This document shows, piece after piece, positions 15,201 to 51,765 of a stretch of DNA of 52,087 nt. The first letter of the stretch is position 1, and the number at the start of each line of letters is the position of its first letter. The stretch is from Nemertoderma westbladi (taxonomy: Eukaryota; Animalia; Xenacoelomorpha). The stretch is taken from contig JAUCBJ010009056.1 in assembly GCA_032718475.1 (NCBI GenBank), positions 1 to 52,087 of the forward strand. The letters run 5' to 3'. The translations under genes and the position numbers were made by a program. The notes beneath the pieces are model-generated. The model searched no databases. It was not told the DNA's origin and was given only the letters and a program-made list of their open reading frames with translations.

Positions 15201-18200
15201 ATCGGAATGATGCAGGAGCCACTGTGGTGTAGTGGTTAGCATACCTGAACGTTTATCGGAAGACGCGGGTTCGATCCTCGCTGGTGGCGAATTTATTTTT
15301 TCCGCTCCATTTGCTATAGAGTTGGATCATCCTAAGTCCTGTTTCAATTTCTTATAATTTATACAATCTCATGGATGTTAAAACATAAACAATAATAATA
15401 TATAATAATACAATATAATAATTCATTGATCATCAATAATAGAACAATTAAACAAAACCTTCCGGACAACGAGATCAAGAAATCAGTTGAATCCTTGAAG
15501 CTCCATGACGACAATCCCATCACTCCAAGTACATCGAAGCAAAAGGCCCTGTGCAAAGTCCTCGATGAGGCTAAGTTCGACAACCTCATAAACAAGACAG
15601 AGTCTGATTACCTCCTAGCTCGGCTTCATGGTGCCGCAGCACCTGGGTCAGGTGACTGGCTGAAAGCCAACCCCTCGGGATCATTGGGTCAGCGTCTTTC
15701 CGGCGAACTTCTTCGGATCGCTACTTCTGTCCGACTAGGAGCTAAAGTCCATGTTCAGCACAGTTGTACTTCGGGATCTACTTGTGATTCACTGGGTCTC
15801 CACTCTTTAGTTTGCAAAAAATTGCCTGGCAGACAAGCAAGGCACCGTCAGGCTCTGAGGGAGGCGATACGATCAGCGGATATACCCAAATACTCTTGAG
15901 CCTGTTATCCCTTTCCGACAATAAGCGCCCCGAAAGATCGACATTAGTCCCTTGGGCATCTGGCAAACCGTCTGAGCGTTGCTTTTTTTTTAAAGCGTGA
16001 TTCTAACTTTTAACTTGGCCTACATACATTATTACGTTTAACTTACTTTATTACTTTTAACTTACGTACTTCTACTTTTTAAAATTCAATTTGTGATTTT
16101 AACTAATTAAGATTTTACATAATTGAATTAATTAATTAATAAAAAATGATATAATTTATTAATATGTAGAGTTGGTGTGGCATAGGTGGGACTGTTTTTG
16201 TGGCACAAATTAAGTGCAAACTAATTATAAAAAAAATTTCAAATTAAGGCTTCAAAGTAAAAGGGCCCCAAAACAATCACAAAGATTAAAGACCCAAAAT
16301 ATAATACAATAATGAAAGGAGCTATCAGTTTGTTAACAATAATTACAAACACACAACAAACGCATCTCATAAAGTAGTTTATTTACCTGCTGTATTGGAA
16401 TAGGAATGGGTCCGAGTTTCACGGTATTAGAAGTTCCTTTACCAGCGATAGTCAGTGAATAATAAGCGCAGGCGACACCGAACTCCAAAATAACGAACGC
16501 TAAACAGCAGGTGAGCCTCTGTAAAGTTAAGTTATACCGTCGGGAAATAAACGAAAATAAATTGAAAAATAACATCCAAGGAAGGCCAAATAAAAGGGCA
16601 GATAAAAACAAATAATCATATATGTCACAACTATTTCCATATAGACGAGTAAAGGGACTTGCGATTGGTCATTCTTCTTAATTAACTGTACACGAGTAAC
16701 TTGTGATTGGTCAACCTTCTTAATTAACTGTACACGAGTAACTTGTGATTGGTCAACCTTCTTAATTAACTGTACACGAGTAACTTGTGATTGGTCATCT
16801 TTCTTAACTGTACAAGAGTAACTTGTGATTGGTCAACCTTCTTAATTAACTGTACACGAGTAACTTGTGATTGGTCAACCTTCTTAATTAACTGTACACG
16901 AGTAACTTGTGATTGGTCAACCTTCTTAATTAACTGTACACGAGTAACTTGTGATTGGTCATCTTTCTTACCTGAACGCGAGTAAATGGACTTGTGATTG
17001 GTAATCTTTCTTACCTGAACGCGAGTAAATGGACTTGTGATTGGCCGCAGGAACACGGAAAGGTAAATATGCTCATCGGAAATCATATCATGCGACTTGT
17101 TGTCAAAAAGCATATTAAACCCGGTTTGGTCTACAGAGGAAGCAACGGCTAAACGGCGGGAAATCTAAAATGGAGGAAAATAAATAATTTTTGTTACATT
17201 TATATCAACTTAACAGCGAATTACTCTTAAAGCTGCAAAGTTCTTTGGGGACCTCATTGCCTCTGCTTTTGGGGGCGCATGCGTCCAGCGCGAGGTTACC
17301 CTGGCATCCGGTTACCTGGACAGAAGGGGCCGCGAGGTAAGGGGAGTTAGGGCGGATCTCCTGGCTTCGGCTTTGGGGATGGTGCGGGTCTGCGGGGCAA
17401 TGACCTCGTAGACTGATATTAATCCCCGGTGCACCCCCTTTTTTAATTGTATTGTTTATATCTTTTTAATTTTATTGTTCTGATAGGTGGTGGGAATTTG
17501 GTGCAGTTTTATATTGATTAATTAAATATACTTACATATACTTTTTTATTATTAACAATATAAAATATAATATTTAGAGAAAATTGATTGATTTTTAATT
17601 GTTATTGAGCGGTACCGGTTATCAAATAGTCAAGTAGTTTAAATTAAATTGAATTGATATTAAAGGATGTTATTTCTATTAATAAATATCAAATTAAATA
17701 TAATAATGTTAGTATTTAATTATCATACCTCACAATCGTCTCTATCGAAAGCCAACCACCTGTTACATATAAACACGAATTTATTCCCGGTTTGTATATC
17801 TCGAATCGATATAAAGTTTAAGTACCAACTCTTGGAGTACCCGTCCCCAGAATTATCGTGCCAGATGTTTAAAGCCTTCAAGGGGCCCAGATGTCTGAAA
17901 TATTATAAATAACTGAATATTATAACGCTGTGGCAGTAACAACAAACATTTATTTCAAAAATAATATAGAAAATAACAACAGAGAGCATATAAGGAGTGA
18001 TAAAAAATAGAAAATATAGAAAAAGTGGAAAATATAGAAAAAATAGAAAATATAGAACAAAAAAATATACATAAGAAACTACATTTTTCTACTTTTCCAC
18101 TTTTCAGTGACAAGAATCACTGCCGTTTTTTTTATCTTACACTAAACTTCTAGAACACTAGCTCGCCTCTTTATAGAAAATTTGAATAACTTGCACACCA

Positions 18201-21200
18201 TTTGATTCCAAATTAAAATAATCGTAAACCGAGACAAAACAACCCATGCTATAAAATTTCAGATCATATGTCTTCGGGCCCAGAATATTGACCCAGAATA
18301 GACTCGGACTGGCTCTATAAATTAACTTAGACATTATTTAATTAATATTGTTCAGAATATCATTGCTTGCTATTAATGATATTATTTATCTAACTTATTG
18401 AGGTAAAACTATACACTTACACTTACACCTATACACTTAAATGCGCAAATTGACTTGTGTTTTTATGACGATTCGTGCATTTGTTCTTCTAGCCCTATAT
18501 TACATGGTTGCCATGGATTCAATGTAATCCAATATATATATGCAGTTTAGAATTACGAAACAGAGATTGTGACATGGGTACCAAGGTACGTTGTCATGGG
18601 TACCAAGGTACGTTGTCATGAGTACCAAGGTACGTTGAGCTATAAAACATCTAAATCTAAATTGTATACCTAATGCTAAAACTCGACTATTAGTAAGACT
18701 TATCTGTCCTTATATGGGCATGGAATGTATCTAACTATCTATATATTTAGCTAAAACTCGACTATTAGTAAGACTTCTCTGTCCTTATATGGGCATGGGA
18801 TATATCTAACTATCTATATATTTAGCTAAAACTCGACTATTAGTAAGACTTATCTGTCCTTATATGGGCATGGAATGTATCTAACTATCTATATATTTAG
18901 CTAAAACTCGACTATTAGTAAGACTTATCTGTCCTTATATGGGCATGGAATATATCTAACTATCTATATATTTAGCTAAAACTCGACTATTAGTAAGACT
19001 TCTCTGTCCTTATATGGGCATGGAATATATCTAACTATCTATCTATATCTCACTACTCACTGTTTGGTTCCCAAAAGGAAGGTGTTGAGTTGATTCATAC
19101 AGAAGGTTCGACGTTTAGGATCAGATAATATTCTCGCACCTGTTGAGAAATTCTCCCCGTAAATATCGCAGAAAACTCTGGATTTCGTACCGGCGTTGAA
19201 TTTCATTCCAGTCTGAACGGCAATCTCGTAATAATAATTGCAATTCGGATCGTTATCCGCTAGGGGGCATACACCAATCTGTATAGCAAAGGTGATAAAC
19301 GTTATTACCAGTAACAAAATAACTTAATTTTTGCGCGCGGTATTATAAAAGGAAGTTATCTTGTTTATTGTTTTGGTAATAACAACATGTTAATTTAACC
19401 TGCTATTTTCCTCTAATTAATAATTAACTTTGTTAATTAGTCGAGATGGAAAGCTGGATAATTGAACTAACCTGCATATACCAATCAAAAGTAAGACAAT
19501 AATTTACCAAAAGAGTTTGTATTAGTAACATATTGATTAAATTGTCTTTGTCCCTAAGGGATCCGAACTAACCAGTTCTTTGTCCCTAAGGGATCCGAAC
19601 TAACCAGTTCTTTGTCTCTGATATCTTTTCTTCTCGCCCAGATTAGTAGCAACGCGTAAATCCAAAATATCGAGAATATGAGAATATACAAAGGGTACAT
19701 AACGAGGAAGTCAAAGTTGAGACTCTCAAAGTTAATTGGAGGGGGTAAAGGGAACAAGGTTGAGGTGAATGTTGATAAATGGGTGCACAAACATTCAGAA
19801 ACATCTGTATTCGTGTGTGAACCAACCTAAAATAAATTAAAATTAAATTATTCTGGATCTAGATTTCTTACAATTCGCCCCCTAGCGGCCGACATAGGAA
19901 CTAGTAGTCAGTATGTGTTTATAGTATAATTTATAATAATAATAATAATATATACACCCCCAGCGGGGTAAATGGTTTTACAAGTGATTAATCTAGTAAA
20001 ATCCGTAATTTAATTTAAAATATATTATATGGTGCATTCAAATAATAGTAAAAGTTAATAAAAATATTTATATATATAATATATATATATAAATATAAAT
20101 TAAAAATAGTTAATTCCTTGAGGCCAGTTCGGCGAGAGGCGGGCAAACAGGGCAGTTGAGTGCGTGGTACCGGGTTGGAGGCAGTGGCGGCAGATACAGT
20201 CGGGCGGAATGGGGTGGAACGGGGATGATGTCTTGCATATAAGATGGTGGAACCCATGCGAAGTGGCGCGGGTTATGTGGTGGCGGTTACGCTGCCCGGC
20301 GAGTTTTCAGACTGAGCTGTAGAAGCCTGGGCCGGAGGCGTAGTGTTCATTCGGATAGTATAATTTATAAACTTTATATTCCACGTTACGACAATGGGGA
20401 CAAGGGAATATATAAACAAACAGCTTAAACGCTAGTATGTCAGAGACCTGTTGTTATTTAAAAGATAACGGATGTGTGATGATAAAACAACGAGATATGT
20501 TCTAAATTCCGGTAAATAATTGAAATACAAAATCTCTTATTTAACCTGAAGGAGCCCGGTGGTAGGGCGATAACGTTTGTTTGCTGAATAAAATGTTATT
20601 TGCCGGTGTTTAGACCCTAAATCTCGTTGTTATTTCAACACCCATCCGTTATGTTTAACATTAGAATACTGGCGCGGGCATACCACTTCATATCTTATTT
20701 TATAAAGATGGCAGTGACTGGCGCAGTTCGCAGATATCAAACCCTATTAGATATATATTAGATAGATATCAAACCAGTTCAGCAAATGGAAAGTCTCCAG
20801 TAAACAACTAATTATCTTACCACGCATCCCTTGTACCTCCATTCATTACTTACCACGCATCCCTTGGACATCCATTCATTACTTACCACACATCCCTTGG
20901 ACATCCATTCATTACTTACCACGCATCCCTTGGACCTCCATTCATTACTTACCACGCATCCCTTGGACATCCATTCATTACTTACCACACATCCCTTGGA
21001 CATCCATTCATTACTTACCACGCATCCCTTGGACATCCATTCATTACTTACCACGCATCCCTTGGACATCCATTCATTACTTACCACGCATCCCTTGGAC
21101 ATCCATTCATTACTTACCACGCATCCCTTGGACATCCATTCATTACTTACCACGCATCCCTTGGACATCCATTCATTACTTACCACGCATCCCTTGGACA

Positions 21201-24200
21201 TCCATTCATTACTTACCACGCATCCCTTGGACATCCATTCATTACTTACCACGCATCCCTTGGACATCCATTCATTACTTACCACGCATCCCTTGGACAT
21301 CCATTCATTACTTACCACGCATCCCTTGGACATCCATTCATTACTTACCACGCATCCCTTGGACATCCATTCATTACTTACCACGCATCCCTTGGACATC
21401 CATTCATTACTTACCACGCATCCCTTGGACATCCATTCATTACTTACCACGCATCCCTTGGACATCCATTCATTACTTACCACGCATCCCTTGGACATCC
21501 ATTCATTACTTACCACGCATCCCTTGGACATCCATTCATTACTTACCACGCATCCCTTGGACATCCATTCATTACTTACCACGCATCCCTTGGACATCCA
21601 TTCATTACTTACCACGCATCCCTTGGACATCCATTCATTACTTACCACGCATCCCTTGGACATCCATTCATTACTTACCACGCATCCCTTGGACATCCAT
21701 TCATTACTTACCACGCATCCCTTGGACATCCATTCATTACTTACCACGCATCCCTTGGACATCCATTCATTACTTACCACGCATCCCTTGGACATCCATT
21801 CATTACTTACCACGCATCCCTTGGACATCCATTCATTACTTACCACGCATCCCTTGGACATCCATTCATTACTTACCACGCATCCCTTGGACATCCATTC
21901 ATTACTTACCACGCATCCCTTGGACATCCATTCATTACTTACCACGCATCCCTTGGACATCCATTCATTACTTACCACGCATCCCTTGGACATCCATTCA
22001 TTACTTACCACGCATCCCTTGGACATCCATTCATTACTTACCACGCATCCCTTGGACATCCATTCATTACTTACCACGCATCCCTTGGACATCCATTCAT
22101 TACTTACCACGCATCCCTTGGACATCCATTCATTACTTACCACGCATCCCTTGGACATCCATTCATTACTTACCACGCATCCCTTGGACATCCATTCATT
22201 ACTTACCACGCATCCCTTGGACATCCATTCATTACTTACCACGCATCCCTTGGACATCCATTCATTACTTACCACGCATCCCTTGGACATCCATTCATTA
22301 CTTACCACGCATCCCTTGGACATCCATTCATTACTTACCACGCATCCCTTGGACATCCATTCATTACTTACCACGCATCCCTTGGACATCCATTCATTAC
22401 TTACCACGCATCCCTTGGACATCCATTCATTACTTACCACGCATCCCTTGGACATCCATTCATTACTTACCACGCATCCCTTGGACATCCATTCATTACT
22501 TACCACGCATCCCTTGGACATCCATTCATTACTTACCACGCATCCCTTGGACATCCATTCATTACTTACCACGCATCCCTTGGACATCCATTCATTACTT
22601 ACCACGCATCCCTTGGACATCCATTCATTACTTACCACGCATCCCTTGGACATCCATTCATTACTTACCACGCATCCCTTGGACATCCATTCATTACTTA
22701 CCACGCATCCCTTGGACATCCATTCATTACTTACCACGCATCCCTTGGACATCCATTCATTACTTACCACGCATCCCTTGGACATCCATTCATTACTTAC
22801 CACGCATCCCTTGGACATCCATTCATTACTTACCACGCATCCCTTGGACATCCATTCATTACTTACCACGCATCCCTTGGACATCCATTCATTACTTACC
22901 ACGCATCCCTTGGACATCCATTCATTACTTACCACGCATCCCTTGGACATCCATTCATTACTTACCACGCATCCCTTGGACATCCATTCATTACTTACCA
23001 CGCATCCCTTGGACATCCATTCATTACTTACCACGCATCCCTTGGACATCCATTCATTACTTACCACGCATCCCTTGGACATCCATTCATTACTTACCAC
23101 GCATCCCTTGGACATCCATTCATTACTTACCACGCATCCCTTGGACATCCATTCATTACTTACCACGCATCCCTTGGACATCCATTCATTACTTACCACG
23201 CATCCCTTGGACATCCATTCATTACTTACCACGCATCCCTTGGACATCCATTCATTACTTACCACGCATCCCTTGGACATCCATTCATTACTTACCACGC
23301 ATCCCTTGGACCTCCATTCATTACTTACCACGCATCCCTTGGACATCCATTCATTACTTACCACGCATCCCTTGGACATCCATTCATTACTTACCACGCA
23401 TCCCTTGGACATCCATTCATTACTTACCACGCATCCCTTGGACATCCATTCATTACTTACCACGCATCCCTTGGACATCCATTCATTACTTACCACGCAT
23501 CCCTTGGACATCCATTCATTACTTACCACGCATCCCTTGGACATCCATTCATTACTTACCACGCATCCCTTGGACATCCATTCATTACTTACCACGCATC
23601 CCTTGGACATCCATTCATTACTTACCACGCATCCCTTGGACATCCATTCATTACTTACCACGCATCCCTTGGACATCCATTCATTACTTACCACGCATCC
23701 CTTGAACATCCATTCATTACTTACCACGCATCCCTTGGACATCCATTCATTACTTACCACGCATCCCTTGGACATCCATTCATTACTTACCACGCATCCC
23801 TTGAACATCCATTCATTACTTACCACGCATCCCTTGGACATCCATTCATTACTTACCACGCATCCCTTGGACATCCATTCATTACTTACCACGCATCCCT
23901 TGGACATCCATTCATTACTTACCACGCATCCCTTGGACATCCATTCATTACTTACCACGCATCCCTTGGACATCCATTTATTACTTACCACGCATCCCTT
24001 GAACATCCATTCATTACTTACCACGCATTCCTTGGACATCCATTCATTACTTACCACGCATCCCTTGGACATCCATTCATTACTTACCACGCATCCCTTG
24101 GACATCCATTCATTACTTACCACGCATCCCTTGGACATCCATTCATTACTTACCACGCATCCCTTGGACATCCATTCATTACTTACCACGCATCCCTTGG

Positions 24201-27200
24201 ACATCCATTCATTACTTACCACGCATCCCTTGGACATCCATTCATTACTTACCACGCATCCCTTGTACCTCCATTCATTACTTACCACGCATCCCTTGGA
24301 CATCCATTCATTACTTACCACGCATCCCTTGGACATCCATTCATTACTTACCACGCATCCCTTGGACATCCATTCATTACTTACCACGCATCCCTTGGAC
24401 ATCCATTCATTACTTACCACGCATCCCTTGGACATCCATTCATTCCTTACCACGCATCCCTTGGACATCCATTCATTACTTACCACGAATCCCTTGGACA
24501 TCCATTCATTACTTACCACGCATCCCTTGGACATCCATTCATTACTTACCACGCATCCATTGGACATCCATTCATTACTTACCACGCATCCCTTGGACAT
24601 CCATTTATTACTTACCACGCATCCCTTGAACATCCATTCATTACTTACCACGCATTCCTTGGACATCCATTCATTACTTACCACGCATCCCTTGGACATC
24701 CATTTATTACTTACCACGCATCCCTTGAACATCCATTCATTACTTACCACGCATTCCTTGGACATCCATTCATTACTTACCACGCATCCCTTGGACATCC
24801 ATTCATTACTTACCACGCATCCCTTGGACATCCATTCATTACTTACCACGCATCCCTTGGACATCCATTTATTACTTACCACGCATCCCTTGGACATCCA
24901 TTTATTACTTACCACGCATCCCTTGAACATCCATTCATTACTTACCACGCATTCCTTGGACATCCATTCATTACTTACCACGCATCCCTTGGACATCCAT
25001 TCATTACTTACCACGCATCCCTTGGACATCCATTCATTACTTACCACGCGCCATTGGACATCCATTCATTACTTACCACGCATCCCTTGGACATCCATTT
25101 ATTACTTACCACGCATCCCTTGGACATCCATTTATTACTTACCACGCATCCCTTGAACATCCATTCATTACTTACCACGCATTCCTTGGACATCCATTCA
25201 TTACTTACCACGCATCCCTTGGACATCCATTCATTACTTACCACGCATCCCTTGGACATCCATTCATTACTTACCACGCATCCCTTGGACATCCATTCAT
25301 TACTTACCACGCATCCCTTGGACATCCATTCATTACTTACCACGCGCCATTGGACATCCATTCATTACTTACCACGCATCCCTTGGACATCCATTTATTA
25401 CTTACCACGCATCCCTTGAACATCCATTCATTACTTACCACGCATTCCTTGGACATCCATTCATTACTTACCACGCATCCCTTGGACATCCATTCATTAC
25501 TTACCACGCATCCCTTGGACATCCATTCATTACTTACCACGCATCCCTTGGACATCCATTCATTACTTACCACGCATCCCTTGGACATCCATTCATTACT
25601 TACCACGCGCCATTGGACATCCATTCATTACTTACCACGCATCCCTTGGACATCCATTTATTACTTACCACGCATCCCTTGAACATCCATTCATTACTTA
25701 CCACGCATTCCTTGGACATCCATTCATTACTTACCACGAATCCCTTGGACATCCATTCATTACTTACCACGCATCCCTTGGACATCCATTCATTACTTAC
25801 CACGCATCCCTTGGACATCCATTCATTACTTACCACGCATCCCTTGGACATCCATTCATTACTTACCACGCATCCCTTGGACATCCATTCATTACTTACC
25901 ACGCGCCATTGGACATCCATTCATTACTTACCACGCATTCCTTCGACATCCATTCATTACTTACCACGTATCCCTTGGACATCCATTCATTACTTACCAC
26001 GCGCCATTGGACATCCATTCATTCCTTACCACGCATCCCTTGGACATCCATTCATTACTTACCACGAATCCCTTGGACATCCATTCATTACTTACCACGC
26101 ATCCCTTGGACATCCATTCATTACTTACCACGCATCCCTTGGACATCCATTCATTACTTACCACGCATCCCTTGGACATCCATTCATTACTTACCACGCG
26201 CCATTGGACATCCATTCATTACTTACCACGCATTCCTTCGACATCCATTCATTACTTACCACGCATCCCTTGGACATCCATTCATTACTTACCACGCATC
26301 CCTTGGACATCCATTCATTACTTACCACGTATCCCTTGGACATCCATTCATTACTTACCACGCGCCATTGGACATCCATTCATTCCTTACGACGCATCCC
26401 TTGGACATCCATTCATTACTTACCACGAATCCCTTGGACATCCATTCATTACTTACCACGCATCCCTTGGACATCCATTCATTACTTACCACGCATCCCT
26501 TGGACATCCATTCATTACTTACCACGCATCCCTTGGACATCCATTCATTACTTACCACGCATCCCTTGGACATCCATTCATTACTTACCACGCATCCCTT
26601 GGACATCCATTCATTACTTACCACGCATCCCTTGGACATCCATTCATTACTTACCACGCGCCATTGGACATCCATTCATTACTTACCACGCATTCCTTCG
26701 ACATCCATTCATTACTTACCACGTATCCCTTGGACATCCATTCATTACTTACCACGCATCCCTTGGACATCCATTCATTACTTACCACGCATCCCTTGGA
26801 CATCCATTCATTACTTACCACGCATCCCTTGGACATCCATTCATTACTTACCACGCATCCCTTGGACATCCATTCATTACTTACCACGCATCCCTTGGAC
26901 ATCCATTCATTACTTACCACGCGCCATTGGACATCCATTCATTACTTACCACGCATCCCTTGGACATCCATTCATTACTTACCACGCATCCCTTGGACAT
27001 CCATTCATTACTTACCACGCATCCCTTGGACATCCATTCATTACTTACCACGCATCCCTTGGACATCCATTCATTACTTACCACGCATCCCTTGGACATC
27101 CATTCATTACTTACCACGCATCCCTTGGACATCCATTCATTACTTACCACGCATCCCTTGGACATCCATTTATTACTTACCACGCATCCCTTGGACATCC

Positions 27201-30200
27201 ATTCATTACTTACCACGCATCCCTTGGACATCCATTCATTACTTACCACGCATCCCTTGGACATCCATTCATTACTTACCACGCATCCCTTGGACATCCA
27301 TTCATTACTTACCACACATCCCTTGGACATCCATTCATTACTTACCACGCATCCCTTGGACATCCATTCATTACTTACCACGCATCCCTTGGACATCCAT
27401 TCATTACTTACCACGCATCCCTTGGACATCCATTCATTACTTACCACGCATCCCTTGGACATCCATTCATTACTTACCACGCATCCCTTGGACATCCATT
27501 CATTACTTACCACGCATCCCTTGGACATCCATTCATTACTTACCACGCATCCCTTGGACATCCATTCATTACTTACCACGCGCCATTGGACATCCATTCA
27601 TTACTTACCACGCATTCCTTCGACATCCATTCATTACTTACCACGTATCCCTTGGACATCCATTCATTACTTACCACGCGCCATTGGACATCCATTCATT
27701 CCTTACCACGCATCCCTTGGACATCCATTCATTACTTACCACGAATCCCTTGGACATCCATTCATTACTTACCACGCATCCCTTGGACATACATTCATTA
27801 CTTACCACGCATCCCTTGGACATCCATTCATTACTTACCACGCATCCCTTGGACATCCATTCATTACTTACCACGCGCCATTGGACATCCATTCATTACT
27901 TACCACGCATTCCTTCGACATCCATTCATTACTTACCACGCATCCCTTGGACATCCATTCATTACTTACCACGCATCCCTTGGACATCCATTCATTACTT
28001 ACCACGTATCCCTTGGACATCCATTCATTACTTACCACGCGCCATTGGACATCCATTCATTCCTTACCACGCATCCCTTGGACATCCATTCATTACTTAC
28101 CACGAATCCCTTGGACATCCATTCATTACTTACCACGCATCCCTTGGACATCCATTCATTACTTACCACGCATCCCTTGGACATCCATTCATTACTTACC
28201 ACGCATCCCTTGAACATCCATTCATTACTTACCACGCATCCCTTGGACATCCATTCATTACTTACCACGCATCCCTTGGACATCCATTCATTACTTACCA
28301 CGCATCCCTTGGACATCCATTCATTACTTACCACGCGCCATTGGACATCCATTCATTACTTACCACGCATTCCTTCGACATCCATTCATTACTTACCACG
28401 TATCCCTTGGACATCCATTCATTACTTACCACGCATCCCTTGGACATCCATTCATTACTTACCACGCATCCCTTGGACATCCATTCATTACTTACCACGC
28501 ATCCCTTGGACATCCATTCATTACTTACCACGCATCCCTTGGACATCCATTCATTACTTACCACGCATCCCTTGGACATCCATTCATTACTTACCACGCG
28601 CCATTGGACATCCATTCATTACTTACCACGCATCCCTTGGACATCCATTCATTACTTACCACGCATCCCTTGGACATCCATTCATTACTTACCACGCATC
28701 CCTTGGACATCCATTCATTACTTACCACGCATCCCTTGGACATCCATTCATTACTTACCACGCATCCCTTGGACATCCATTCATTACTTACCACGCATCC
28801 CTTGGACATCCATTCATTACTTACCACGCATCCCTTGGACATCCATTCATTACTTACCACGCATCCCTTGGACATCCATTCATTACTTACCACGCATCCC
28901 TTGGACATCCATTCATTACTTACCACGCATCCCTTGGACATCCATTCATTACTTACCACGCATCCCTTGGACATCCATTCATTACTTACCACGCATCCCT
29001 TGGACATCCATTCATTACTTACCACGCATCCCTTGGACATCCATTCATTACTTACCACGCATCCCTTGGACATCCATTCATTACTTACCACGCATCCCTT
29101 GGACATCCATTCATTACTTACCACGCATCCCTTGGACATCCATTCATTACTTACCACGCATCCCTTGGACATCCATTCATTACTTACCACGCATCCCTTG
29201 GACATCCATTCATTACTTACCACGCATCCCTTGGACATCCATTCATTACTTACCACGCATCCCTTGGACATCCATTCATTACTTACCACGCATCCCTTGG
29301 ACATCCATTCATTACTTACCACGCATCCCTTGGACATCCATTCATTACTTACCACGCATCCCTTGGACATCCATTCATTACTTACCACGCATCCCTTGGA
29401 CATCCATTCATTACTTACCACGCATCCCTTGGACATCCATTCATTACTTACCACGCATCCCTTGGACATCCATTCATTACTTACCACGCATCCCTTGGAC
29501 ATCCATTCATTACTTACCACGCATCCCTTGGACATCCATTCATTACTTACCACGCATCCCTTGGACATCCATTCATTACTTACCACGCATCCCTTGGACA
29601 TCCATTCATTACTTACCACGCATCCCTTGGACATCCATTCATTACTTACCACGCGCCATTGGACATCCATTCATTACTTACCACGCATCCCTTGGACATC
29701 CATTCATTACTTACCACGCATCCCTTGGACATCCATTCATTACTTACCACGCATCCCTTGGACATCCATTCATTACTTACCACGCATCCCTTGGACATCC
29801 ATTCATTACTTACCACGCATCCCTTGGACATCCATTCATTACTTACCACGCATCCCTTGGACATCCATTCATTACTTACCACGCATCCCTTGGACATCCA
29901 TTCATTACTTACCACGCATCCCTTGGACATCCATTCATTACTTACCACGCATCCCTTGGACATCCATTCATTACTTACCACGCATCCCTTGGACATCCAT
30001 TCATTACTTACCACGCATCCCTTGGACATCCATTCATTACTTACCACGCATCCCTTGGACATCCATTCATTACTTACCACGCATCCCTTGGACATCCATT
30101 CATTACTTACCACGCATCCCTTGGACATCCATTCATTACTTACCACGCATCCCTTGGACATCCATTCATTACTTACCACGCATCCCTTGGACATCCATTC

Positions 30201-33200
30201 ATTACTTACCACGCATCCCTTGGACATCCATTCATTACTTACCACGCATCCCTTGGACATCCATTCATTACTTACCACGCATCCCTTGGACATCCATTCA
30301 TTACTTACCACGCATCCCTTGGACATCCATTCATTACTTACCACGCATCCCTTGGACATCCATTCATTACTTACCACGCATCCCTTGGACATCCATTCAT
30401 TACTTACCACGCATCCCTTGGACATCCATTCATTACTTACCACGCATCCCTTGGACATCCATTCATTACTTACCACGCATCCCTTGGACATCCATTCATT
30501 ACTTACCACGCAGCCCTTGGACATCCATTCATTACTTACCACGCATCCCTTGGACATCCATTCATTACTTACCACGTATCCCTTGGACATCCATTCATTA
30601 CTTACCACGCGCCATTGGACATCCATTCATTCCTTACCACGCATCCCTTGGACATCCATTCATTACTTACCACGAATCCCTTGGACATCCATTCATTACT
30701 TACCACGCATCCCTTGGACATCCATTCATTACTTACCACGCATCCCTTGGACATCCATTCATTACTTACCACGCATCCCTTGGACATCCATTCATTACTT
30801 ACCACGCGCCATTGGACATCCATTCATTACTTACCACGCATTCCTTCGACATCCATTCATTACTTACCACGCATCCCTTGGACATCCATTCATTACTTAC
30901 CACGCATCCCTTGGACATCCATTCATTACTTACCACGTATCCCTTGGACATCCATTCATTACTTACCACGCGCCATTGGACATCCATTCATTCCTTACCA
31001 CGCATCCCTTGGACATCCATTCATTACTTACCACGCATCCCTTGGACATCCATTCATTACTTACCACGCATCCCTTGGACATCCATTCATTACTTACCAC
31101 GCATCCCTTGGACATCCATTCATTACTTACCACGCATCCCTTGGACATCCATTCATTACTTACCACGCATCCCTTGGACATCCATTCATTACTTACCACG
31201 CATCCCTTGGACATCCATTCATTACTTACCACGCATCCCTTGGACATCCATTCATTACTTACCACGCGCCATTGGACATCCATTCATTACTTACCACGCA
31301 TTCCTTCGACATCCATTCATTACTTACCACGTATCCCTTGGACATCCATTCATTACTTACCACGCATCCCTTGGACATCCATTCATTACTTACCACGCAT
31401 CCCTTGGACATCCATTCATTACTTACCACGCATCCCTTGGACATCCATTCATTACTTACCACGCATCCCTTGGACATCCATTCATTACTTACCACGCATC
31501 CCTTGGACATCCATTCATTACTTACCACGCGCCATTGGACATCCATTCATTACTTACCACGCATCCCTTGGACATCCATTCATTACTTACCACGCATCCC
31601 TTGGACATCCATTCATTACTTACCACGCATCCCTTGGACATCCATTCATTACTTACCACGCATCCCTTGGACATCCATTCATTACTTACCACGCATCCCT
31701 TGGACATCCATTCATTACTTACCACGCATCCCTTGGACATCCATTCATTACTTACCACGCATCCCTTGGACATCCATTCATTACTTACCACGCATCCCTT
31801 GGACATCCATTCATTACTTACCACGCATCCCTTGGACATCCATTCATTACTTACCACGCATCCCTTGGACATCCATTCATTACTTACCACGCATCCCTTG
31901 GACATCCATTCATTACTTACCACGCATCCCTTGGACATCCATTCATTACTTACCACGCATCCCTTGGACATCCATTCATTACTTACCACGCATCCCTTGG
32001 ACATCCATTCATTACTTACCACGCATCCCTTGGACATCCATTCATTACTTACCACGCATCCCTTGGACATCCATTCATTACTTACCACGCATCCCTTGGA
32101 CATCCATTCATTACTTACCACGCATCCCTTGGACATCCATTCATTACTTACCACGCATCCCTTGGACATCCATTCATTACTTACCACGCATCCCTTGGAC
32201 ATCCATTCATTACTTACCACGCATCCCTTGGACATCCATTCATTACTTACCACGCATCCCTTGGACATCCATTCATTACTTACCACGCATCCCTTGGACA
32301 TCCATTCATTACTTACCACGCGCCATTGGACATCCATTCATTACTTACCACGCATCCCTTGGACATCCATTCATTACTTACCACGCATCCCTTGGACATC
32401 CATTCATTACTTACCACGCATCCCTTGGACATCCATTCATTACTTACCACGCATCCCTTGGACATCCATTCATTACTTACCACGCATCCCTTGGACATCC
32501 ATTCATTACTTACCACGCATCCCTTGGACATCCATTCATTACTTACCACGCATCCCTTGGACATCCATTCATTACTTACCACGCATCCCTTGGACATCCA
32601 TTCATTACTTACCACGCATCCCTTGGACATCCATTCATTACTTACCACGCATCCCTTGGACATCCATTCATTACTTACCACGCATCCCTTGGACATCCAT
32701 TCATTACTTACCACGCATCCCTTGGACATCCATTCATTACTTACCACGCATCCCTTGGACATCCATTCATTACTTACCACGCATCCCTTGGACATCCATT
32801 CATTACTTACCACGCATCCCTTGGACATCCATTCATTACTTACCACGCATCCCTTGGACATCCATTCATTACTTACCACGCATCCCTTGGACATCCATTC
32901 ATTACTTACCACGCATCCCTTGGACATCCATTCATTACTTACCACGCATCCCTTGGACATCCATTCATTACTTACCACGCATCCCTTGGACATCCATTCA
33001 TTACTTACCACGCATCCCTTGGACATCCATTCATTACTTACCACGCATCCCTTGGACATCCATTCATTACTTACCACGCATCCCTTGGACATCCATTCAT
33101 TACTTACCACGCATCCCTTGGACATCCATTCATTACTTACCACGCATCCCTTGGACATCCATTCATTACTTACCACGCATCCCTTGGACATCCATTCATT

Positions 33201-36200
33201 ACTTACCACGCATCCCTTGGACATCCATTCATTACTTACCACGCATCCCTTGGACATCCATTCATTACTTACCACGCATCCCTTGGACATCCATTCATTA
33301 CTTACCACGCATCCCTTGGACATCCATTCATTACTTACCACGCATCCCTTGGACATCCATTCATTACTTACCACGCATCCCTTGGACATCCATTCATTAC
33401 TTACCACGCATCCCTTGGACATCCATTCATTACTTACCACGCATCCCTTGGACATCCATTCATTACTTACCACGCATCCCTTGGACATCCATTCATTACT
33501 TACCACGCATCCCTTGGACATCCATTCATTACTTACCACGCATCCCTTGGACATCCATTCATTACTTACCACGCATCCCTTGGACATCCATTCATTACTT
33601 ACCACGCATCCCTTGGACATCCATTCATTACTTACCACGCATCCCTTGGACATCCATTCATTACTTACCACGCATCCCTTGGACATCCATTCATTACTTA
33701 CCACGCATCCCTTGGACATCCATTCATTACTTACCACGCATCCCTTGGACATCCATTCATTACTTACCACGCATCCCTTGGACATCCATTCATTACTTAC
33801 CACGCATCCCTTGGACATCCATTCATTACTTACCACGCATCCCTTGGACATCCATTCATTACTTACCACGCATCCCTTGGACATCCATTCATTACTTACC
33901 ACGCATCCCTTGGACATCCATTCATTACTTACCACGCATCCCTTGGACATCCATTCATTACTTACCACGCATCCCTTGGACATCCATTCATTACTTACCA
34001 CGCGCCATTGGACATCCATTCATTACTTACCACGCATCCCTTGGACATCCATTCATTACTTACCACGCATCCCTTGGACATCCATTCATTACTTACCACG
34101 CATCCCTTGGACATCCATTCATTACTTACCACGCATCCCTTGGACATCCATTCATTACTTACCACGCATCCCTTGGACATCCATTCATTACTTACCACGC
34201 ATCCCTTGGACATCCATTCATTACTTACCACGCATCCCTTGGACATCCATTCATTACTTACCACGCATCCATTGGACATCCATTCATTACTTACCACGCA
34301 TCCCTTGGACATCCATTCATTACTTACCACGCATCCCTTGGACATCCATTCATTACTTACCACGCATCCCTTGGACATCCATTCATTACTTACCACGCAT
34401 CCCTTGGACATCCATTCATTACTTACCACGCATCCCTTGGACATCCATTCATTACTTACCACGCATCCCTTGGACATCCATTCATTACTTACCACGCATC
34501 CCTTGGACATCCATTCATTACTTACCACGCATCCCTTGGACATCCATTCATTACTTACCACGCATCCCTTGGACATCCATTCATTACTTACCACGCATCC
34601 CTTGGACATCCATTCATTACTTACCACGCATCCCTTGGACATCCATTCATTACTTACCACGCATCCCTTGGACATCCATTCATTACTTACCACGCATCCC
34701 TTGGACATCCATTCATTACTTACCACGCATCCCTTGGACATCCATTCATTACTTACCACGCATCCCTTGGACATCCATTCATTACTTACCACGCATCCCT
34801 TGGACATCCATTCATTACTTACCACGCATCCCTTGGACATCCATTCATTACTTACCACGCATCCCTTGGACATCCATTCATTACTTACCACGCATCCCTT
34901 GGACATCCATTCATTACTTACCACGCATCCCTTGGACATCCATTCATTACTTACCACGCATCCCTTGGACATCCATTCATTACTTACCACGCATCCCTTG
35001 GACATCCATTCATTACTTACCACGCATCCCTTGGACATCCATTCATTACTTACCACGCATCCCTTGGACATCCATTCATTACTTACCACGCATCCCTTGG
35101 ACATCCATTCATTACTTACCACGCATCCCTTGGACATCCATTCATTACTTACCACGCATCCCTTGGACATCCATTCATTACTTACCACGCATCCCTTGGA
35201 CATCCATTCATTACTTACCACGCATCCCTTGGACATCCATTCATTACTTACCACGCATCCCTTGGACATCCATTCATTACTTACCACGCATCCCTTGGAC
35301 ATCCATTCATTACTTACCACGCATCCCTTGGACATCCATTCATTACTTACCACGCATCCCTTGGACATCCATTCATTACTTACCACGCATCCCTTGGACA
35401 TCCATTCATTACTTACCACGCATCCCTTGGACATCCATTCATTACTTACCACGCATCCCTTGGACATCCATTCATTACTTACCACGCATCCCTTGGACAT
35501 CCATTCATTACTTACCACGCATCCCTTGGACATCCATTCATTACTTACCACGCATCCCTTGGACATCCATTCATTACTTACCACGCATCCCTTGGACATC
35601 CATTCATTACTTACCACGCATCCCTTGGACATCCATTCATTACTTACCACGCATCCCTTGGACATCCATTCATTACTTACCACGCATCCCTTGGACATCC
35701 ATTCATTACTTACCACGCATCCCTTGGACATCCATTCATTACTTACCACGCATCCCTTGGACATCCATTCATTACTTACCACGCATCCCTTGGACATCCA
35801 TTCATTACTTACCACGCATCCCTTGGACATCCATTCATTACTTACCACGCATCCCTTGGACATCCATTCATTACTTACCACGCATCCCTTGGACATCCAT
35901 TCATTACTTACCACGCATCCCTTGGACATCCATTCATTACTTACCACGCATCCCTTGGACATCCATTCATTACTTACCACGCATCCCTTGGACATCCATT
36001 CATTACTTACCACGCATCCCTTGGACATCCATTCATTACTTACCACGCATCCCTTGGACATCCATTCATTACTTACCACGCATCCCTTGGACATCCATTC
36101 ATTACTTACCACGCATCCCTTGGACATCCATTCATTACTTACCACGCATCCCTTGGACATCCATTCATTACTTACCACGCATCCCTTGGACATCCNNNNN

Positions 36201-39200
36201 NNNNNNNNNNNNNNNNNNNNNNNNNNNNNNNNNNNNNNNNNNNNNNNNNNNNNNNNNNNNNNNNNNNNNNNNNNNNNNNNNNNNNNNNNNNNNNNATCGT
36301 CATTGAATGATTGACAGAGAGTTGTGTAAATCGCGATAGTTAGATTGCTCATGAAGACCTAGAAAAATATATATTTAGTCAAACAAAAACATGAATGATC
36401 CATTGAGACATATTGTCTAACCTTATCTTCTATGAATGATCAATTGAGACAGATTGACTAACCTTATACTCTATGAATGATCCATTGAGACAGATTGAAC
36501 CTTATACTCTATGAATGATCTATTGAGACAGATTGAACCTTATACTCTATGAATGATCTATTGAGACAGATTGACTAACCTTATCTTCTATGAATGATCC
36601 ATTGATACAGATTGACTAACCTTATACTCTATGAATGATCCATTGAGACAGATTGACTAACCTTATACTCTATGAATGATCCATTGAGACAGATTGACTA
36701 ACCTTATACTCTATGAATGATCCATTGAGACAGATTTACTAACCTTATCCTCTATGAATGATCCATTGAGACAGATTGAACCTTATACTCTATGAATGAT
36801 CAATTGAGACAGATTGACTAACCTTATCCTCTATGAATGATCTATTGAGACAGATTGACTAACCTTATCCCCTATGAATGATCTATTTAGACAGATTGAG
36901 TAACCTTATCCCCTATGAATGATCTATTGAGACAGATTGACTAACCTTATCCCCTATGAATGATCCATTGAGACAGATTGACTTACCTTATCCTCTATGA
37001 ATGATCCATTGAGTCAGATTGACTAACCTTATACTCTATGAATGATCTATTGAGACAGATTGACTAACCTTATCCCCTATGAATGATCTATTGAGACAGA
37101 TTGACTAACCTTATACTCTATGAATGATCTATTGAGACAGATTGACTAACCTTATCCCCTATGAATGATCTATTGAGACAGATTGACTAACCTTATCCCC
37201 TATGAATGATCCATTGAGACAGATTGACTAACCTTATCCTCTATGAATGATCCATTGAGTCAGATTGACTAACCTTATCCCCTATGAATGATCCATTGAG
37301 ACAGATTGACTAACCTTATCCTCTATGAATGATCTATTGAGACAGATTGACTAACCTTATACTCTATGAATGATCTATTGAGACAGATTGACTAACCTTA
37401 TACTCTATGAATGATCTATTGAGACAGATTGACTAACCTTATCCTCTATGAATGATCCATTGAGTCAGATTGACTAACCTTATACTCTATGAATGATCTA
37501 TTGAGACAGATTGACTAACCTTATCCTCTATGAATGATCCATTGAGACAGATTGACTAACCTTATCCTCTATGAATGATCTATTAAGACAGATTGACTAA
37601 CCTTATACTCTATGAATGATCCATTGAGTCAGATTGACTAACCTTATACTCTATGAATGATCAATTGAGACAGATTGACTAACCTTATCCTCTATGAATG
37701 ATCCATTGAGACAGATTGACTAACCTTATACTCTATGAATGATCTATTGAGACAGATTGACTAACCTTATACTCTATGAATGATCCATTGAGTCAGATTG
37801 ACTAACCTTATACTCTATGAATGATCAATTGAGACAGATTGACTAACCTTATCCTCTATGAATGATCCATTGAGACAGATTGAACCTTATACTCTATGAA
37901 TGATCAATTGAGTCAGATTGACTAACCTTATCCCCTATGAATGATCCATTGAGACAGATTGACTAACCTTATCCTCTATGAATGATCTATTGAGACAGAT
38001 TGACTAACCTTATACTCTATGAATGATCCATTGAGACAGATTGACTAACCTTATACTCTATGAATGATCCATTGAGATAGATTGAACCTTATCTTCTATG
38101 AATGATCCATTGAGACAGATTGACTAACCTTATCCTCTATGAATGATCCATTGAGACAGATTGAACCTTATACTCTATGAATGATCAATTGAGACAGATT
38201 GACTAACCTTATACTCTATGAATGATCTATTGAGACAGATTGACTAACCTTATACTCTATGAATGATCCATTGAGACAGATTGACTAACCTTATCCTCTA
38301 TGAATGATCCATTGAGTCAGATTGACTAACCTTATACTCTATGAATGATCTATTGAGACAGATTGACTAACCTTATCCTCTATGAATGATCCATTGATAC
38401 AGATTGACTAACCTTATACTCTATGAATGATCTATTGAGACAGATTGACTAACCTTATCCTCTATGAATGATCTATTGAGACAGATTGACTAACCTTATA
38501 CTCTATGAATGATCTATTGAGACAGATTGACTAACCTTATACTCTATGAATGATCCATTGAGACAGATTGACTAACCTTATCCTCTATGAATGATCCATT
38601 GAGTCAGATTGACTAACCTTATCCCCTATGAATGATCCATTGAGACAGATTGACTAACCTTATCCTCTATGAATGATCCATTGAGACAGATTGAACCTTA
38701 TACTCTATGAATGATCAATTGAGTCAGATTGACTAACCTTATCCCCTATGAATGATCCATTGAGACAGATTGACTAACCTTATCCTCTATGAATGATCTA
38801 TTGAGACAGATTGACTAACCTTATACTCTATGAATGATCTATTGAGACAGATTGACTAACCTTATACTCTATGAATGAACTATTGAGACAGATTGACTAA
38901 CCTTATCCTCTATGAATGATCTATTGAGACAGATTGACTAACCTTATACTCTATGAATGATCTATTGAGACAGATTGACTAACCTTATACTCTATGAATG
39001 ATCCATTGAGACAGATTGACTAACCTTATCCTCTATGAATGATCCATTGAGTCAGATTGACTAACCTTATCCCCTATGAATGATCCATTGAGACAGATTG
39101 ACTAACCTTATCCTCTATGAATGATCTATTGAGACAGATTGACTAACCTTATACTCTATGAATGATCTATTGAGACAGATTGACTAACCTTATCCTCTAT

Positions 39201-42200
39201 GAATGATCCATTGAGATAGATTGAACCTTATCTTCTATGAATGATCCATTGAGACAGATTGACTAACCTTATACCCTATGAATGATCCATTGAGACAGAT
39301 TGACTAACCTTATCCTCTATGAATGATCCATTGAGACAGATTGACTAACCTTATCTTCTATGAATGATCCATTGAGACAGATTGACTAACCTTATACCCT
39401 ATGAATGATCCATTGAGACAGATTGACTAACCTTATCCTCTATGAATGATCCATTGATACAGATTGACTAACCTTATACTCTATGAATGATCTATTGAGA
39501 CAGATTGACTAACCTTATACTCTATGAATGATCTATTGAGACAGATTGACTAACCTTATACTCTATGAATGATCTATTGAGACAGATTGACTAACCTTAT
39601 CCTCTATGAATGATCTATTGAGACAAATTGACTAACCTTATACTCTATGAATGATCTATTGAGACAGATTGACTAACCTTATCCTCTATGAATGATCTAT
39701 TGAGACAGATTGACTAACCTTATACTCTATGAATGATCTATTGAGACAGATTGACTAACCTTATACTCTATGAATGATCTATTGAGACAGATTGACTAAC
39801 CTTATCCTCTATGAATGATCTATTGAGACAGATTGACTAACCTTATACTGTATAAATGATCTATTGAGACAGATTGACTAACCTTATACTCTATGAATGA
39901 TCCATTGAGACAGATTGACTAACCTTATCCTCTATGAATGATCCATTGAGTCAGATTGACTAACCTTATCCCCTATGAATGATCCATTGAGATAGATTGA
40001 ACCTTATCTTCTATGAATGATCCATTGAGACAGATTGACTAACCTTATACCCTATGAATGATCCATTGAGACAGATTGACTAACCTTATCCTCTATGAAT
40101 GATCCATTGAGACAGATTGACTAACCTTATCTTCTATGAATGATCCATTGAGACCGATTGACTAACCTTATACCCTATGAATGATCCATTGAGACAGATT
40201 GACTAACCTTATCCTCTATGAATGATCCATTGAGACAGATTGACTAACCTTATACCCTATGAATGATCCATTGAGACAGGTTGACTAACCTGATCCTCTA
40301 TGAATGATCCATTGAGACAGATTGACTAACCTTATACTCTATGAATGATCCATTGAGACAGATTGACTAACCTTATATTCTATGAATGATCCATTGATAG
40401 AGATTGACTAACCTTATCCTCTATGAATGATCCATTGAGACAGATTGGCTAACCTTATCCTCTATGAATGATCCATTGAGACAGATTGAACCTTATACTC
40501 TATGAATGATCCATTGAGACAGATTGACTAACCTTATACTCTATGAATGATCCATTGAGACAGATTGAACCTTATACTCTATGAATGATCTATTGAGACA
40601 GATTGACTAACCTTATACTCTATGAATGATCCATTGAGACAGATTGACTAACCTTATCCTCTATGAATGATCCATTGAGACAGATTGACTAACCTTATAT
40701 TCTATGAATGATCCATTGATAGAGATTGACTAACCTTATCCTCTATGAATGATCCATTGAGACAGATTGACTAACCTTATACTCTATGAATGATCCATTG
40801 AGACAGATTGACTAACCTTATACTCTATGAATGATCCATTGAGACAGATTGAACCTTATACTCTATGAATGATCTATTGAGACAGATTGACTAACCTTAT
40901 ACTCTATGAATGATCCATTGAGACAGATTGACTAACCTTATCCTCTATGAATGATCCATTGAGACAGATTGACTAACCTTATATTCTATGAATGATCCAT
41001 TGATAGAGATTGACTAACCTTATCCTCTATGAATGATCCATTGAGACAGATTGACTAACCTTATACTCTATGAATGATCCATTGAGACAGATTGACTAAC
41101 CTTATCCTCTATGAATGATCCATTGAGACAGATTGACTAACCTTATATTCTATGAATGATCCATTGATAGAGATTGACTAACCTTATCCTCTATGAACGG
41201 CTCCGAGCTGTAGAACTTTCTAGGATTTCTGTGACGAGGTTTTATCCCAATGTAGTAAATACCTTCATCCATTAGAATGTTGTTATCAAAGAAAGCCGCG
41301 TATTTATTTGGATAAAATTCTCCAGGATGTCTCGATGATTCTGTGATTAAATAATATATTAGTAATTGAAGCGATATCCAATAATACTTAAATTAGGGGA
41401 AACAATAGAGGCGGTTCAGCTGGATAAATTAGAAACCTACAGTGACCAAAACTCCCTGACAGTTAACTTACGCAAAACAAAGGTTGTATAATTCCGAACA
41501 GGTGGCCGTCTCCCCGCAAATGATTAAATTGATTTACAAGGGTCAGCCAATCGAATTGGTCAACAGTTTATTTAGTTACAAGGGTCAGCCAATCGAATGG
41601 GTCAACAGTTTATTTACTTACAAGGGTCAGCCAATCGAATGGGTCAACAGTTTATTTACTTACAAGGGTCACCAGTTTAATTACTTAGGGGTGGTCCTCT
41701 CGACAAAAAATGGCGCCGCAGGACATTATTACCACCTGAAAAACCATGGAATAGCATCATGTATGCGACTGGCGACAAAAGTTGACCTCAGTTCAATTTC
41801 CCTAGCATCCGCACATAAACTCTGGTCTCATGTAATTCTACCCGCCGTTACATATGGTTGCCCCATTTTTGACCCCAGCATGGGTAACCCCAATCTACAG
41901 TCACACAGTTTAGACCACGTTATTAAAAGTCCGGGGTTTTTACTGGAAGCTGCGGAGTGGCCTAAGTACCACCGCTTGTGCTCGACCGCACATACACAGC
42001 CATAATCACGATACTATTTTACATTTTTATCACTAGGCCTATATGTACGACTTTCATATTTGTGTCCATTTAATTATTTTTAATTTACTATTAATTATTA
42101 TAATACTGTTGGGGCCTACATCCACTTCGGATATATTGAAATAAATATAAACCATCATTATTTTGAAAATTTAATTAATCTACTGCACATGTTTGTGGCG

Positions 42201-50390: not shown

Positions 50391-51611
50391 CTAATTTTTA
50401 CTTTTTCCACCGCATTTAAATATATTAGAATTAACGGCTTTCCGAAAACTCCCCACAAAAATGTACATAACATAAAAATTTATACCATAAACGACAGAAC
50501 CCAAGGTTGAAATGTAAGCAAAATATGACGCGTAATGCCTCAATAACAATAAATTAGAATATTCTGCCACAAGTGACGTCAGGGGATCTATTGTGTTTTC
50601 CAATGAATTTTGAAACGCCCAAAGTATATTCCAAATGACACTTAAAAAATCCTTAGCACTATTTAGACTCGCTGTTATGAACATCATTTTTACAGCTCCA
50701 ACCATTTTAGCTGTTGATGGGGAATTCGGGTTTGATTTTACGAGCTTCTTTAACTTATATATCAAAAGACCGTTAATAACACAAACTGAAAGAACTTGTA
50801 CACCAAGTCTTATAGGAGTGTAAAATACCAGAAATGAGATGAATTCAGATATACGTACATTATGGGCCCTGTAATAAGCTTCTAGAACCAAAAATTGTAT
50901 TTTACCATCAACATATTTGATTTCGGCAACATTTCTAATAAGTGTTGGCCAGAACAGTAAAACTGTTGATATAATTGTTATCAATAAAACTATGTAAATC
51001 ATGTTTTTATTCTTCAATTTCGTATCTTTATACCAAACAGGGAAATAAAGAGCAGATAACCTTTCTACACCCATGATTAATGTTAGAGTTTCATCTACAT
51101 GTTGAAAAAACCACGCCATAACAGGCCAGAGTAATTCAAATAACCAGTAGGCTACATTTTTGCAATCTAAAATATAATACAATCTGTCATTATGGTTTTG
51201 TTCGCTGTAACCCTTAAACCACCACCCAAAATTTCGGCCAAGCAAAAAAAATTGACCAATTGATATTATAATATCAAGAACTGTTTTATATAATAACATT
51301 CTGTAAAACAGACTGTTGAATGATGGTTCGCGTATTATTGTTATTATAGTCATGGTATTTCCCAACAGGCCCAATATATTGTAAGTTGAAATGTATGGTG
51401 TTAGTATATATTGAAAAATAGTTTCAGCTTTAATGTAATTGACATATACAACATCATATAAATATTCCCAATCAGACTGAAGGATATTGATGTAATATGA
51501 GTGGTATAGATTAGAGATGGTTGTGTTAGCAACCGCGTCAGAAGCAGAGGCATACATTAATATTATTGCGCAAAATATGTACAACTTTATGTGAAGTATT
51601 GTTGAAAACAT
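50391..51611 (-). CDS. Intronless class A (rhodopsin-like) GPCR, orphan peptide-receptor-like
   Basis: About 406 aa from the ATG at 51611 (the track start at 51623 is TTG). Has TM1 GN, TM2 LD, ERL in the DRY position (MGVERLSALYFP), TM7 INFYVMY...FRK and a hydrophobic N-terminal leader. Confidence 0.9.
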   Translation of the reverse strand: MFSTILHIKLYIFCAIILMYASASDAVANTTISNLYHSYYINILQSDWEYLYDVVYVNYIKAETIFQYILTPYISTYNILGLLGNTMTIITIIREPSFNSLFYRMLLYKTVLDIIISIGQFFLLGRNFGWWFKGYSEQNHNDRLYYILDCKNVAYWLFELLWPVMAWFFQHVDETLTLIMGVERLSALYFPVWYKDTKLKNKNMIYIVLLITIISTVLLFWPTLIRNVAEIKYVDGKIQFLVLEAYYRAHNVRISEFISFLVFYTPIRLGVQVLSVCVINGLLIYKLKKLVKSNPNSPSTAKMVGAVKMMFITASLNSAKDFLSVIWNILWAFQNSLENTIDPLTSLVAEYSNLLLLRHYASYFAYISTLGSVVYGINFYVMYIFVGSFRKAVNSNIFKCGGKSKN

Positions 51612-51765
51612 GTTGATTTCCAAAACTAAAACATAAATAGAAATAAAGTTGTTGAATAGCGAAGTTTACGCGGCGTTTACTAATTTAACTTATCAACATT
51701 TTAGTTGAATTCGGATAGTTTTTTTTTTTAAATCGTCCTTATATAGGTCACGCTCCCCATTCCTC

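Follow-up and report, generated by a model that had tools for sequence, protein, structure and literature searches.

Tandem arrays of exon-end repeats across four 5' splice sites of a polycystin-1-like gene in Nemertoderma westbladi

RESULTS AND DISCUSSION

Four arrays across the donors of one gene

The DNA analyzed here, referred to below as the window, is a stretch of 52,087 nucleotides (nt) of contig JAUCBJ010009056.1 from the Nemertoderma westbladi assembly GCA_032718475.1, and it carries a polycystin-1-like gene on the minus strand (positions 7197-48772), in which 18 exons, from exon 1 (48772-48596) to exon 18 (7374-7197), join into a single open frame with all introns of the GT-AG type. 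Since the gene is read from the minus strand, the first unit of each tandem array described below is the one with the highest coordinates, and the array and exon positions given are those of minus-strand features. Four unrelated repeat units, of 41, 33, 32, and 43/42 base pairs (bp), each cover the end of an exon together with the following 5' splice site (donor) and are repeated into the intron, in 118, at least 467, 2, and 10 copies, respectively. A preliminary description of the sequence had proposed exactly such units, with 12 to 30 exonic nt in each, and calls made with Tandem Repeats Finder (TRF), the 18-exon model, and a transcript contig all agree with it, the exonic share being 29 nt (33-bp unit), 15 nt (41-bp unit), 30 nt (43-bp unit), and 12 nt (32-bp unit). 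The same description counted 4 of 19 donors as hit; the four stand, and the number of donors is 18. An AG...GT-bounded stretch at 6430-6512 on the minus strand, outside the 18-exon chain, may be the additional exon of that count.

Exon 6 (41183-41340) shares its last 15 nt with the 41-bp unit (15 exonic and 26 intronic nt), which makes up an array at 36391-41197 (118.1 copies by TRF). The GT is kept in all 105 full-length units and the complete donor 9-mer in 101 of 118, and of the 4,824 nt of intron 6 only about 58 lie outside the array. Exon 7 is represented in the window by its 5' part (36296-36358), its end falling within an assembly gap of 100 N (36196-36295) that also contains the first unit of the 33-bp array (20811-36195; 466.9 copies by TRF), so that 467 units is a minimum and the array measures at least 15.4 kilobases (kb). 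The overlap of this unit with exon 7 is therefore known from the transcript contig and not from the window sequence: the contig runs from 36296, via 4 letters, to a 29-nt portion of a single 33-bp unit and on into exon 8, a path that gives exon 7 a length of 96 nt (record positions 814-913) and the unit 29 exonic and 4 intronic nt. The donor 9-mer is intact in 459 of the 467 units.

The two remaining arrays are short. Exon 8 (19605-19826; joint 19278/19605) shares its last 12 nt with a 32-bp unit (12 exonic and 20 intronic nt), duplicated at 19545-19616 (2.2 copies by TRF) as two identical units that both keep the donor. Exon 11 (17015-17164; joints 17164/17729 and 16518/17015) shares its last 30 nt with a 43-bp unit, and the array that follows (16657-17044), reported by TRF as 42 bp x 7.6 plus 43 bp x 2.3, consists of 10 units. 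The donor is present in two 43-bp units, whereas the GT is missing from seven derived ones of 42 or 38 bp; the distal unit is partial. The earlier statement that every unit contains a GT donor is thus largely correct for the 33-, 41-, and 32-bp arrays and incorrect for the 43/42-bp array, in which 2 of 10 units have it.

None of the four units occurs elsewhere in the window. The insertion of a dispersed satellite by chance was rejected as an origin, as every unit corresponds to the end of its own exon and is absent from the rest of the window. Introns 1 to 17 total 38,653 nt, of which tandem arrays make up 61% and the donor-spanning arrays alone 53%, in agreement with the suggestion that they have expanded the introns; each array-bearing intron nevertheless retains a nonrepeat 3' part.

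The inventory of four arrays was incomplete, since three more start at +15 to +37 inside donors: a 40-bp array (42572-44933; 59 units, GC content 0.60) that starts at +23 to +34 in intron 5 and leaves the donor outside, a 75-bp array (18675-19046; 5 units) that starts at +15 in intron 9, and six copies of an 8-bp unit (46891-46938) that start at +37 in intron 3. Young duplications of 22, 42, 38, and 22 bp sit in mid-intron in the same gene, and none of the 19 merged repeat loci of the gene spans an acceptor, as had been noted before. The three largest arrays occupy the consecutive introns 5, 6, and 7, and this clustering may point to unequal exchange in a local zone.

Presence of the arrays in other samples

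DNA contigs were available from two other samples, one represented by run X1 and the second by runs X2 and X3; as many sites distinguish these contigs from the window, they were taken to come from other individuals. The junction between exon 6 and the 41-bp array is present in contigs of X1 and X3, and the distal junction of the 33-bp array with unique intron DNA is present in X2. The contigs of X1 and X2 stop at 19574 and restart at 19587, that is, 30 nt into each end of a stretch of 40 nt that is repeated. A contig of X1 begins at 17015, which is 30 nt away from where the 43-bp repeat ends. These are the places at which a 31-mer graph must break, which suggests that both duplications exist in those samples. 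The peak summed depth reached 52,771, 9,208, and 1,317 (X1, X2, and X3, respectively) for the 33-bp unit and 4,310, 2,554, and 1,149 for the 41-bp unit, against a depth of single-copy contigs of about 7 to 33 in X1 and X2 and 12 to 112 in X3; these values are not copy numbers, and as X2 and X3 disagree despite coming from one sample, they indicate high copy number only.

It had been asked whether the arrays might be artefacts of assembly, and the 33-bp array does abut an assembly gap, while no DNA contig covers exon 7 itself, although a hole of this kind proves nothing. Against an artefact stand the two junctions and the very high summed depth of both units in two other samples, the contig breaks exactly at the 40- and 43-nt repeats, and the structured pattern of variant units within the arrays. 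The four arrays are real, and an artefactual origin is scarcely credible.

Donor choice at the array junctions

A spliced contig of 4,062 nt from run X4 contains the joints 16518/17015, 17164/17729, 17894/19061, and 19278/19605, and its loose ends support the joins of exon 12 to 13, exon 6 to 7, and exon 7 to 8; the support for the junctions among exons 1 to 6 and 13 to 18 is the open frame. Run X4 is labelled 'DNA?', and it was taken as RNA because it gave a spliced contig. In this contig the first donor is used at all four array junctions (exons 6, 7, 8, and 11), the case of exon 6 being decided by a transcript loose end that enters exon-unique sequence. This evidence comes from one contig of one run and of another individual, and contigs drop rare forms. 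The locus is nevertheless an extreme natural test of first-donor choice, with at least 459 identical in-frame donors of which the first one is used.

Across exons 7 and 8 a GPS-like Cys/Trp pattern is visible, and the 3' end of the gene lies beyond the modelled exons. The arrays had been suggested to act as arrays of alternative donors, and such a functional ladder can be pictured most easily for the 33-bp unit, where use of the second donor would add 11 residues in frame and successive units would insert 11-residue repeats in the GPS region. The 9-mer is intact in nearly all of these units, the frame of exon 7 continues without interruption over 726 codons of the assembled array (20811-36175, minus strand) as an 11-residue repeat, and minor use of second or third sites is known for the human genes 6-16 and CBS (PMC1557585). 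On the other hand, the one transcript contig examined carries a single 33-bp unit, a 32-bp variant unit present in 23 copies in this array shifts the frame, second-donor use would also break the frame for the 41-, 32-, and 43-bp units, which are not multiples of three, and the GT has been lost in the amplified 42-bp units. We regard a ladder of alternative donors as very improbable.

Known relatives of the arrays

The arrays had also been proposed as a possibly undescribed route to intron expansion, but their arrangement is in print, for the mirages of lancelets (PMC3087553) and for certain human minisatellites (PMC1557585). In intron 7 of human F7, the first unit of a 37-bp variable number tandem repeat (VNTR) spans the exon boundary and splicing takes the donor lying farthest upstream; the genes 6-16, CBS (IVS13), LMNB2, and PDGF are cited as similar cases (PMC1557585). 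As in the window, the first unit of these repeats consists of an exon end plus donor, the later units carry pseudo-donors, and the most upstream site is chosen; unlike the window gene, with four arrays and up to 459 intact pseudo-donors per intron, they have one array per gene, of 5 to 25 copies. Lancelet mirages have been reported in Adh3, the globins BflGb6 and BflGb9, troponin C, and PGBD5 (PMC3087553, PMC3902484), and those of Adh3 have units of 10 to 72 bp, leave splicing undisturbed, and were described as being of unclear origin (PMC3087553). They resemble the window arrays in that a unit spans the exon-intron boundary, several unit sizes occur per gene, splicing is undisturbed, and edge units escape homogenization (PMC3087553, PMC3902484), and they differ in that both 5' and 3' boundaries are hit and the globin arrays have 3 to 6 units, whereas in the window four arrays lie at donors and three just inside them, the largest two measuring 4.8 kb and at least 15.4 kb. 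The VNTR in intron 18 of human ABCA7 starts immediately inside the donor, like the 40- and 75-bp arrays of the window, but its expansion alters splicing (PMC13747324), and the single contig available for the window gene showed no altered product.

The window arrays have head-to-tail units, an end unit with the authentic boundary, a repeated splice signal, and, in the one transcript contig, use of the authentic site, as mirages do, and they belong to the known class of mirages or donor-spanning minisatellites. What is unusual is their density (four spanning and three adjacent arrays among 17 introns) and their size (at least 15.4 kb).

Position of the repeats relative to donors

Whether donors are hit beyond chance was evaluated with every array collapsed to one unit, which leaves 14,988 intronic nt, 19 repeat loci, and 17 introns; all of these tests are post hoc and made on a window picked for its pattern. 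Four donor-spanning loci were seen among the 19, against 0.55 expected (P = 0.0018), and 7 of 19 span a donor or start within 40 nt of one, against 1.39 expected (P = 2.5e-4). Among the 8 loci with a GC content of at least 0.3, four span donors, against 0.25 to 0.41 expected under GC-matched nulls, whether acceptor-spanning seeds were allowed or forbidden (P = 6e-5 to 4e-4), and shifting the arrays within their own intron gave expectations of 0.92 (8 loci; P = 0.004) and 1.11 (19 loci; P = 0.013). The claimed excess at donors therefore holds against every local null, and GC content was rejected as its cause, since the excess persists after conditioning. The comparison of donors (4 of 17 spanned) with acceptors (0 of 17) was not significant (P = 0.051).

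One way to account for these numbers is coincidence, i.e., a repeat-rich gene was picked from many windows and the genome has no positional bias. The gene does contain 19 repeat loci within 15 kb of collapsed intron, the most lenient null yields a P value of 0.013, and the window was drawn from some 250,000. We consider this unlikely, given that the subset of large arrays departs far more strongly from expectation (below) and that arrays across exon boundaries are seen again in lancelet and human genes.

All four arrays with at least 10 copies span a donor or start within 40 nt of one, against 0.34 expected (P = 5e-5), whereas small young duplications do so in 2 of 7 cases (0.56 expected; P = 0.1) and span a donor in 1 of 7 (P = 0.23); the difference between the two classes has a P value of 0.045. 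The split was chosen after the data had been seen, and 8 low-complexity or short-unit loci were excluded from it. The donor excess thus derives almost wholly from the four large arrays. A hotspot of birth should appear first in the young class, so that enrichment in the large arrays leans, if weakly, toward survival and growth.

A second possibility, which follows the preliminary description and is in our view less likely than not, is that in this lineage duplications arise preferentially across and just inside 5' splice sites, for instance through pausing, splicing-coupled lesions, or a chromatin boundary, and thereby seed arrays. The 7 of 19 loci near donors and the persistence of the excess after GC conditioning speak for such a birth hotspot, as do additional small duplications at +41 in intron 17 and +27 in intron 9 and the negative hairpin z scores (-1.8 and -2.4) at two of the four collapsed junctions. 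It is opposed by the lack of significant enrichment among the small young duplications alone, by the borderline comparison with acceptors, by the description of acceptor-side mirages (BflGb6; PMC3087553), and by the choice of one gene after the fact. Neither strand skew nor hairpins lend it a common cause. The sense-strand GC skew of six units ranges from +0.60 to -0.24, and a shared R-loop-prone strand was rejected on this ground; the hairpin z scores at the four array junctions are -1.1, +1.2, -1.8, and -2.4 (the value for exon 7 being taken from a distal unit), compared with -2.0 to +1.2 at the other 14 donors and -2.1 at an acceptor, and hairpins were rejected as a cause because the array donors are not clearly set apart from the others. 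The preliminary attribution of the arrays to R loops or pausing accordingly finds no backing in these measurements. A hotspot of this kind, at which short duplications are born or amplified, might conceivably act genome-wide in the first tens of intron bases throughout the lineage, so that repeated copying of the donor region would lengthen each intron at its 5' side. We think this doubtful; if it were so, the window gene would bear traces of the process in 7 of 17 introns and would owe to it over half of its intron DNA.

In the open-access literature we found no genome-wide test of donor versus acceptor versus mid-intron position; in PMC10078293, PMC4039745, and PMC2812944, in the portions available, no donor-versus-acceptor test was found, and their supplements might hold such counts. 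Exon-boundary minisatellites have so far been reported from single genes, and in the absence of a test of that kind the locus adds a dense case to an oddity already on record. A genome with four exon-boundary arrays in one gene is good material for a genome-wide positional test, and the split between large arrays at donors and small young ones mostly elsewhere offers a sharp way to separate biased birth from biased survival.

Origin and growth of the arrays

The explanation that we favor, with a probability of roughly 55%, is that the four arrays are independent mirage minisatellites, born by duplication, tolerated through first-donor choice, and enlarged by slippage and unequal exchange, and that the crowding at donors reflects survival and growth. 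It can be set out in several steps: (i) each array would have begun as an ordinary short tandem duplication, probably a microhomology-mediated duplication of 20 to 75 bp, by the same process that may have left the mid-intron arrays in the gene; (ii) exon-internal duplications would be purged and acceptor-spanning ones less often tolerated, while donor-spanning ones would be tolerated, as splicing takes the first donor and the mRNA would remain unchanged; (iii) an array abutting an exon may enjoy shelter, since deletions able to eliminate it cannot begin upstream of the donor, and it may thus have a longer time to grow; (iv) growth would proceed by slippage and unequal exchange; and (v) the choice of the window for its pattern probably inflates the excess.

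Microhomology-mediated tandem duplication has been described as general, mostly neutral, and depleted from coding DNA (PMC13167724). The reported duplications are short and flanked by direct repeats, a picture that fits the seeds of the 32-bp unit (direct repeats of 8 nt at the unit ends) and the 41-bp unit (5 nt). The words 'intron' and 'splice' are absent from the main text of that article, which is silent on a donor bias, and two of the four window seeds lack clean microhomology, so that this mode of birth fits two seeds well and two loosely. As for growth, both the 33-bp and the 41-bp array contain blocks of variant units that occur repeatedly, which would be the trace expected of multiunit slippage or unequal exchange.

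Several observations weigh against the proposed combination of neutral birth, survival, and growth: (i) array-free junctions show chance direct-repeat pairs of 3 to 7 nt, and the 5-nt microhomology lies within this background; (ii) exact microhomology amounts to 1 nt for the 33-bp unit, and the final copy of the 43-bp array is a partial one of 23 nt, which means that the birth step is not clean for two of the four arrays; (iii) forbidding acceptor-spanning seeds shifts the expectation merely from 0.34 to 0.35, and since the excess is left after both this filter and GC conditioning, filters alone do not produce four donor-spanning loci among eight; (iv) the shelter should operate at acceptors too; and (v) a birth hotspot would likewise predict the 16-bp-period duplication at 9935-9963 (+41 in intron 17, at the edge of a reverse-transcriptase element) and an 8-nt insertion allele at 19034 (+27 in intron 9, adjoining the 75-bp array), the latter found in the X2 and X3 contigs and being a polymorphic small duplication near a donor.

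The four arrays had been arranged as a stage series from a single duplication to a satellite, and this was rejected, since divergence does not track copy number. The first and last units differ at 0 of 32, 2 of 33, and 5 of 41 positions in the arrays of 2, 467, and 118 copies, respectively, and in the 10-copy array the dominant 42-bp unit agrees with the first unit at 33 of 43 positions, i.e., there are about 10 differences in 43. With the end units as a rough clock, the 10-copy 43/42-bp array looks the oldest.

The age of the host introns can be approached through related loci. A search with exon 10 returned 24 distant loci (37 to 61% identity), none of which is the orthologue of a close relative and which were used solely to compare intron positions; the exon order in related loci is that of the window gene. 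Of 12 distant loci matching exon 8, three have an array-free intron at the position of the exon 8 donor (two exactly, one a codon off) and nine have no intron there, and the presence of array-free introns at this site suggests that this intron is likely older than the duplication it carries. The Rogers model, in which tandem duplication creates a new intron, was rejected for the same reason and because the array-bearing introns keep a nonrepeat 3' part.

Host gene and neighboring features

The assignment to the polycystin-1-like family is based on a PLAT domain (PF01477) detected by Pfam in exon 10 (E = 6e-9), with exon 9 falling below the cut-off (E = 0.0045); the domain follows the first transmembrane helix, the placement by which the polycystin-1 family is recognized. 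Exon 10 matched human polycystin-1 (E = 1e-6), and a further search with this exon found one snail protein, a polycystin of 1,822 amino acids (54%). Exon 8 alone gave no Pfam or PDB match and no homologues in a protein search. The gene likely continues below 7197.

No match to the dispersed-repeat motif of the window was found among metagenome contigs. Upstream of the polycystin-1-like gene, an intronless open frame on the minus strand (50391-51665) encodes a seven-helix receptor of 424 amino acids (Pfam Srsx, E = 1.4e-5), for which a large protein search returned no homologue with an E value under 0.001 and protein-atlas matches were to generic serpentine receptor clusters only. Below the modelled exons, an open frame of 707 codons (1455-3578, minus strand) with Ala-rich repeats and no Pfam match is followed by a 288-bp tandem duplication at 4996-5570, and the two are likely part of a mobile element within the next intron of the gene. 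A broken reverse-transcriptase element lies in intron 17 (7672-9946, minus strand), with RVT_1 in two frames. Intron 12 contains a tRNA-Asn(GTT) predicted by ARAGORN on the plus strand (15218-15289), which may be a tRNA-derived repeat, and by eye a decayed inverted copy of the tRNA is apparently present at about 15060-15130.

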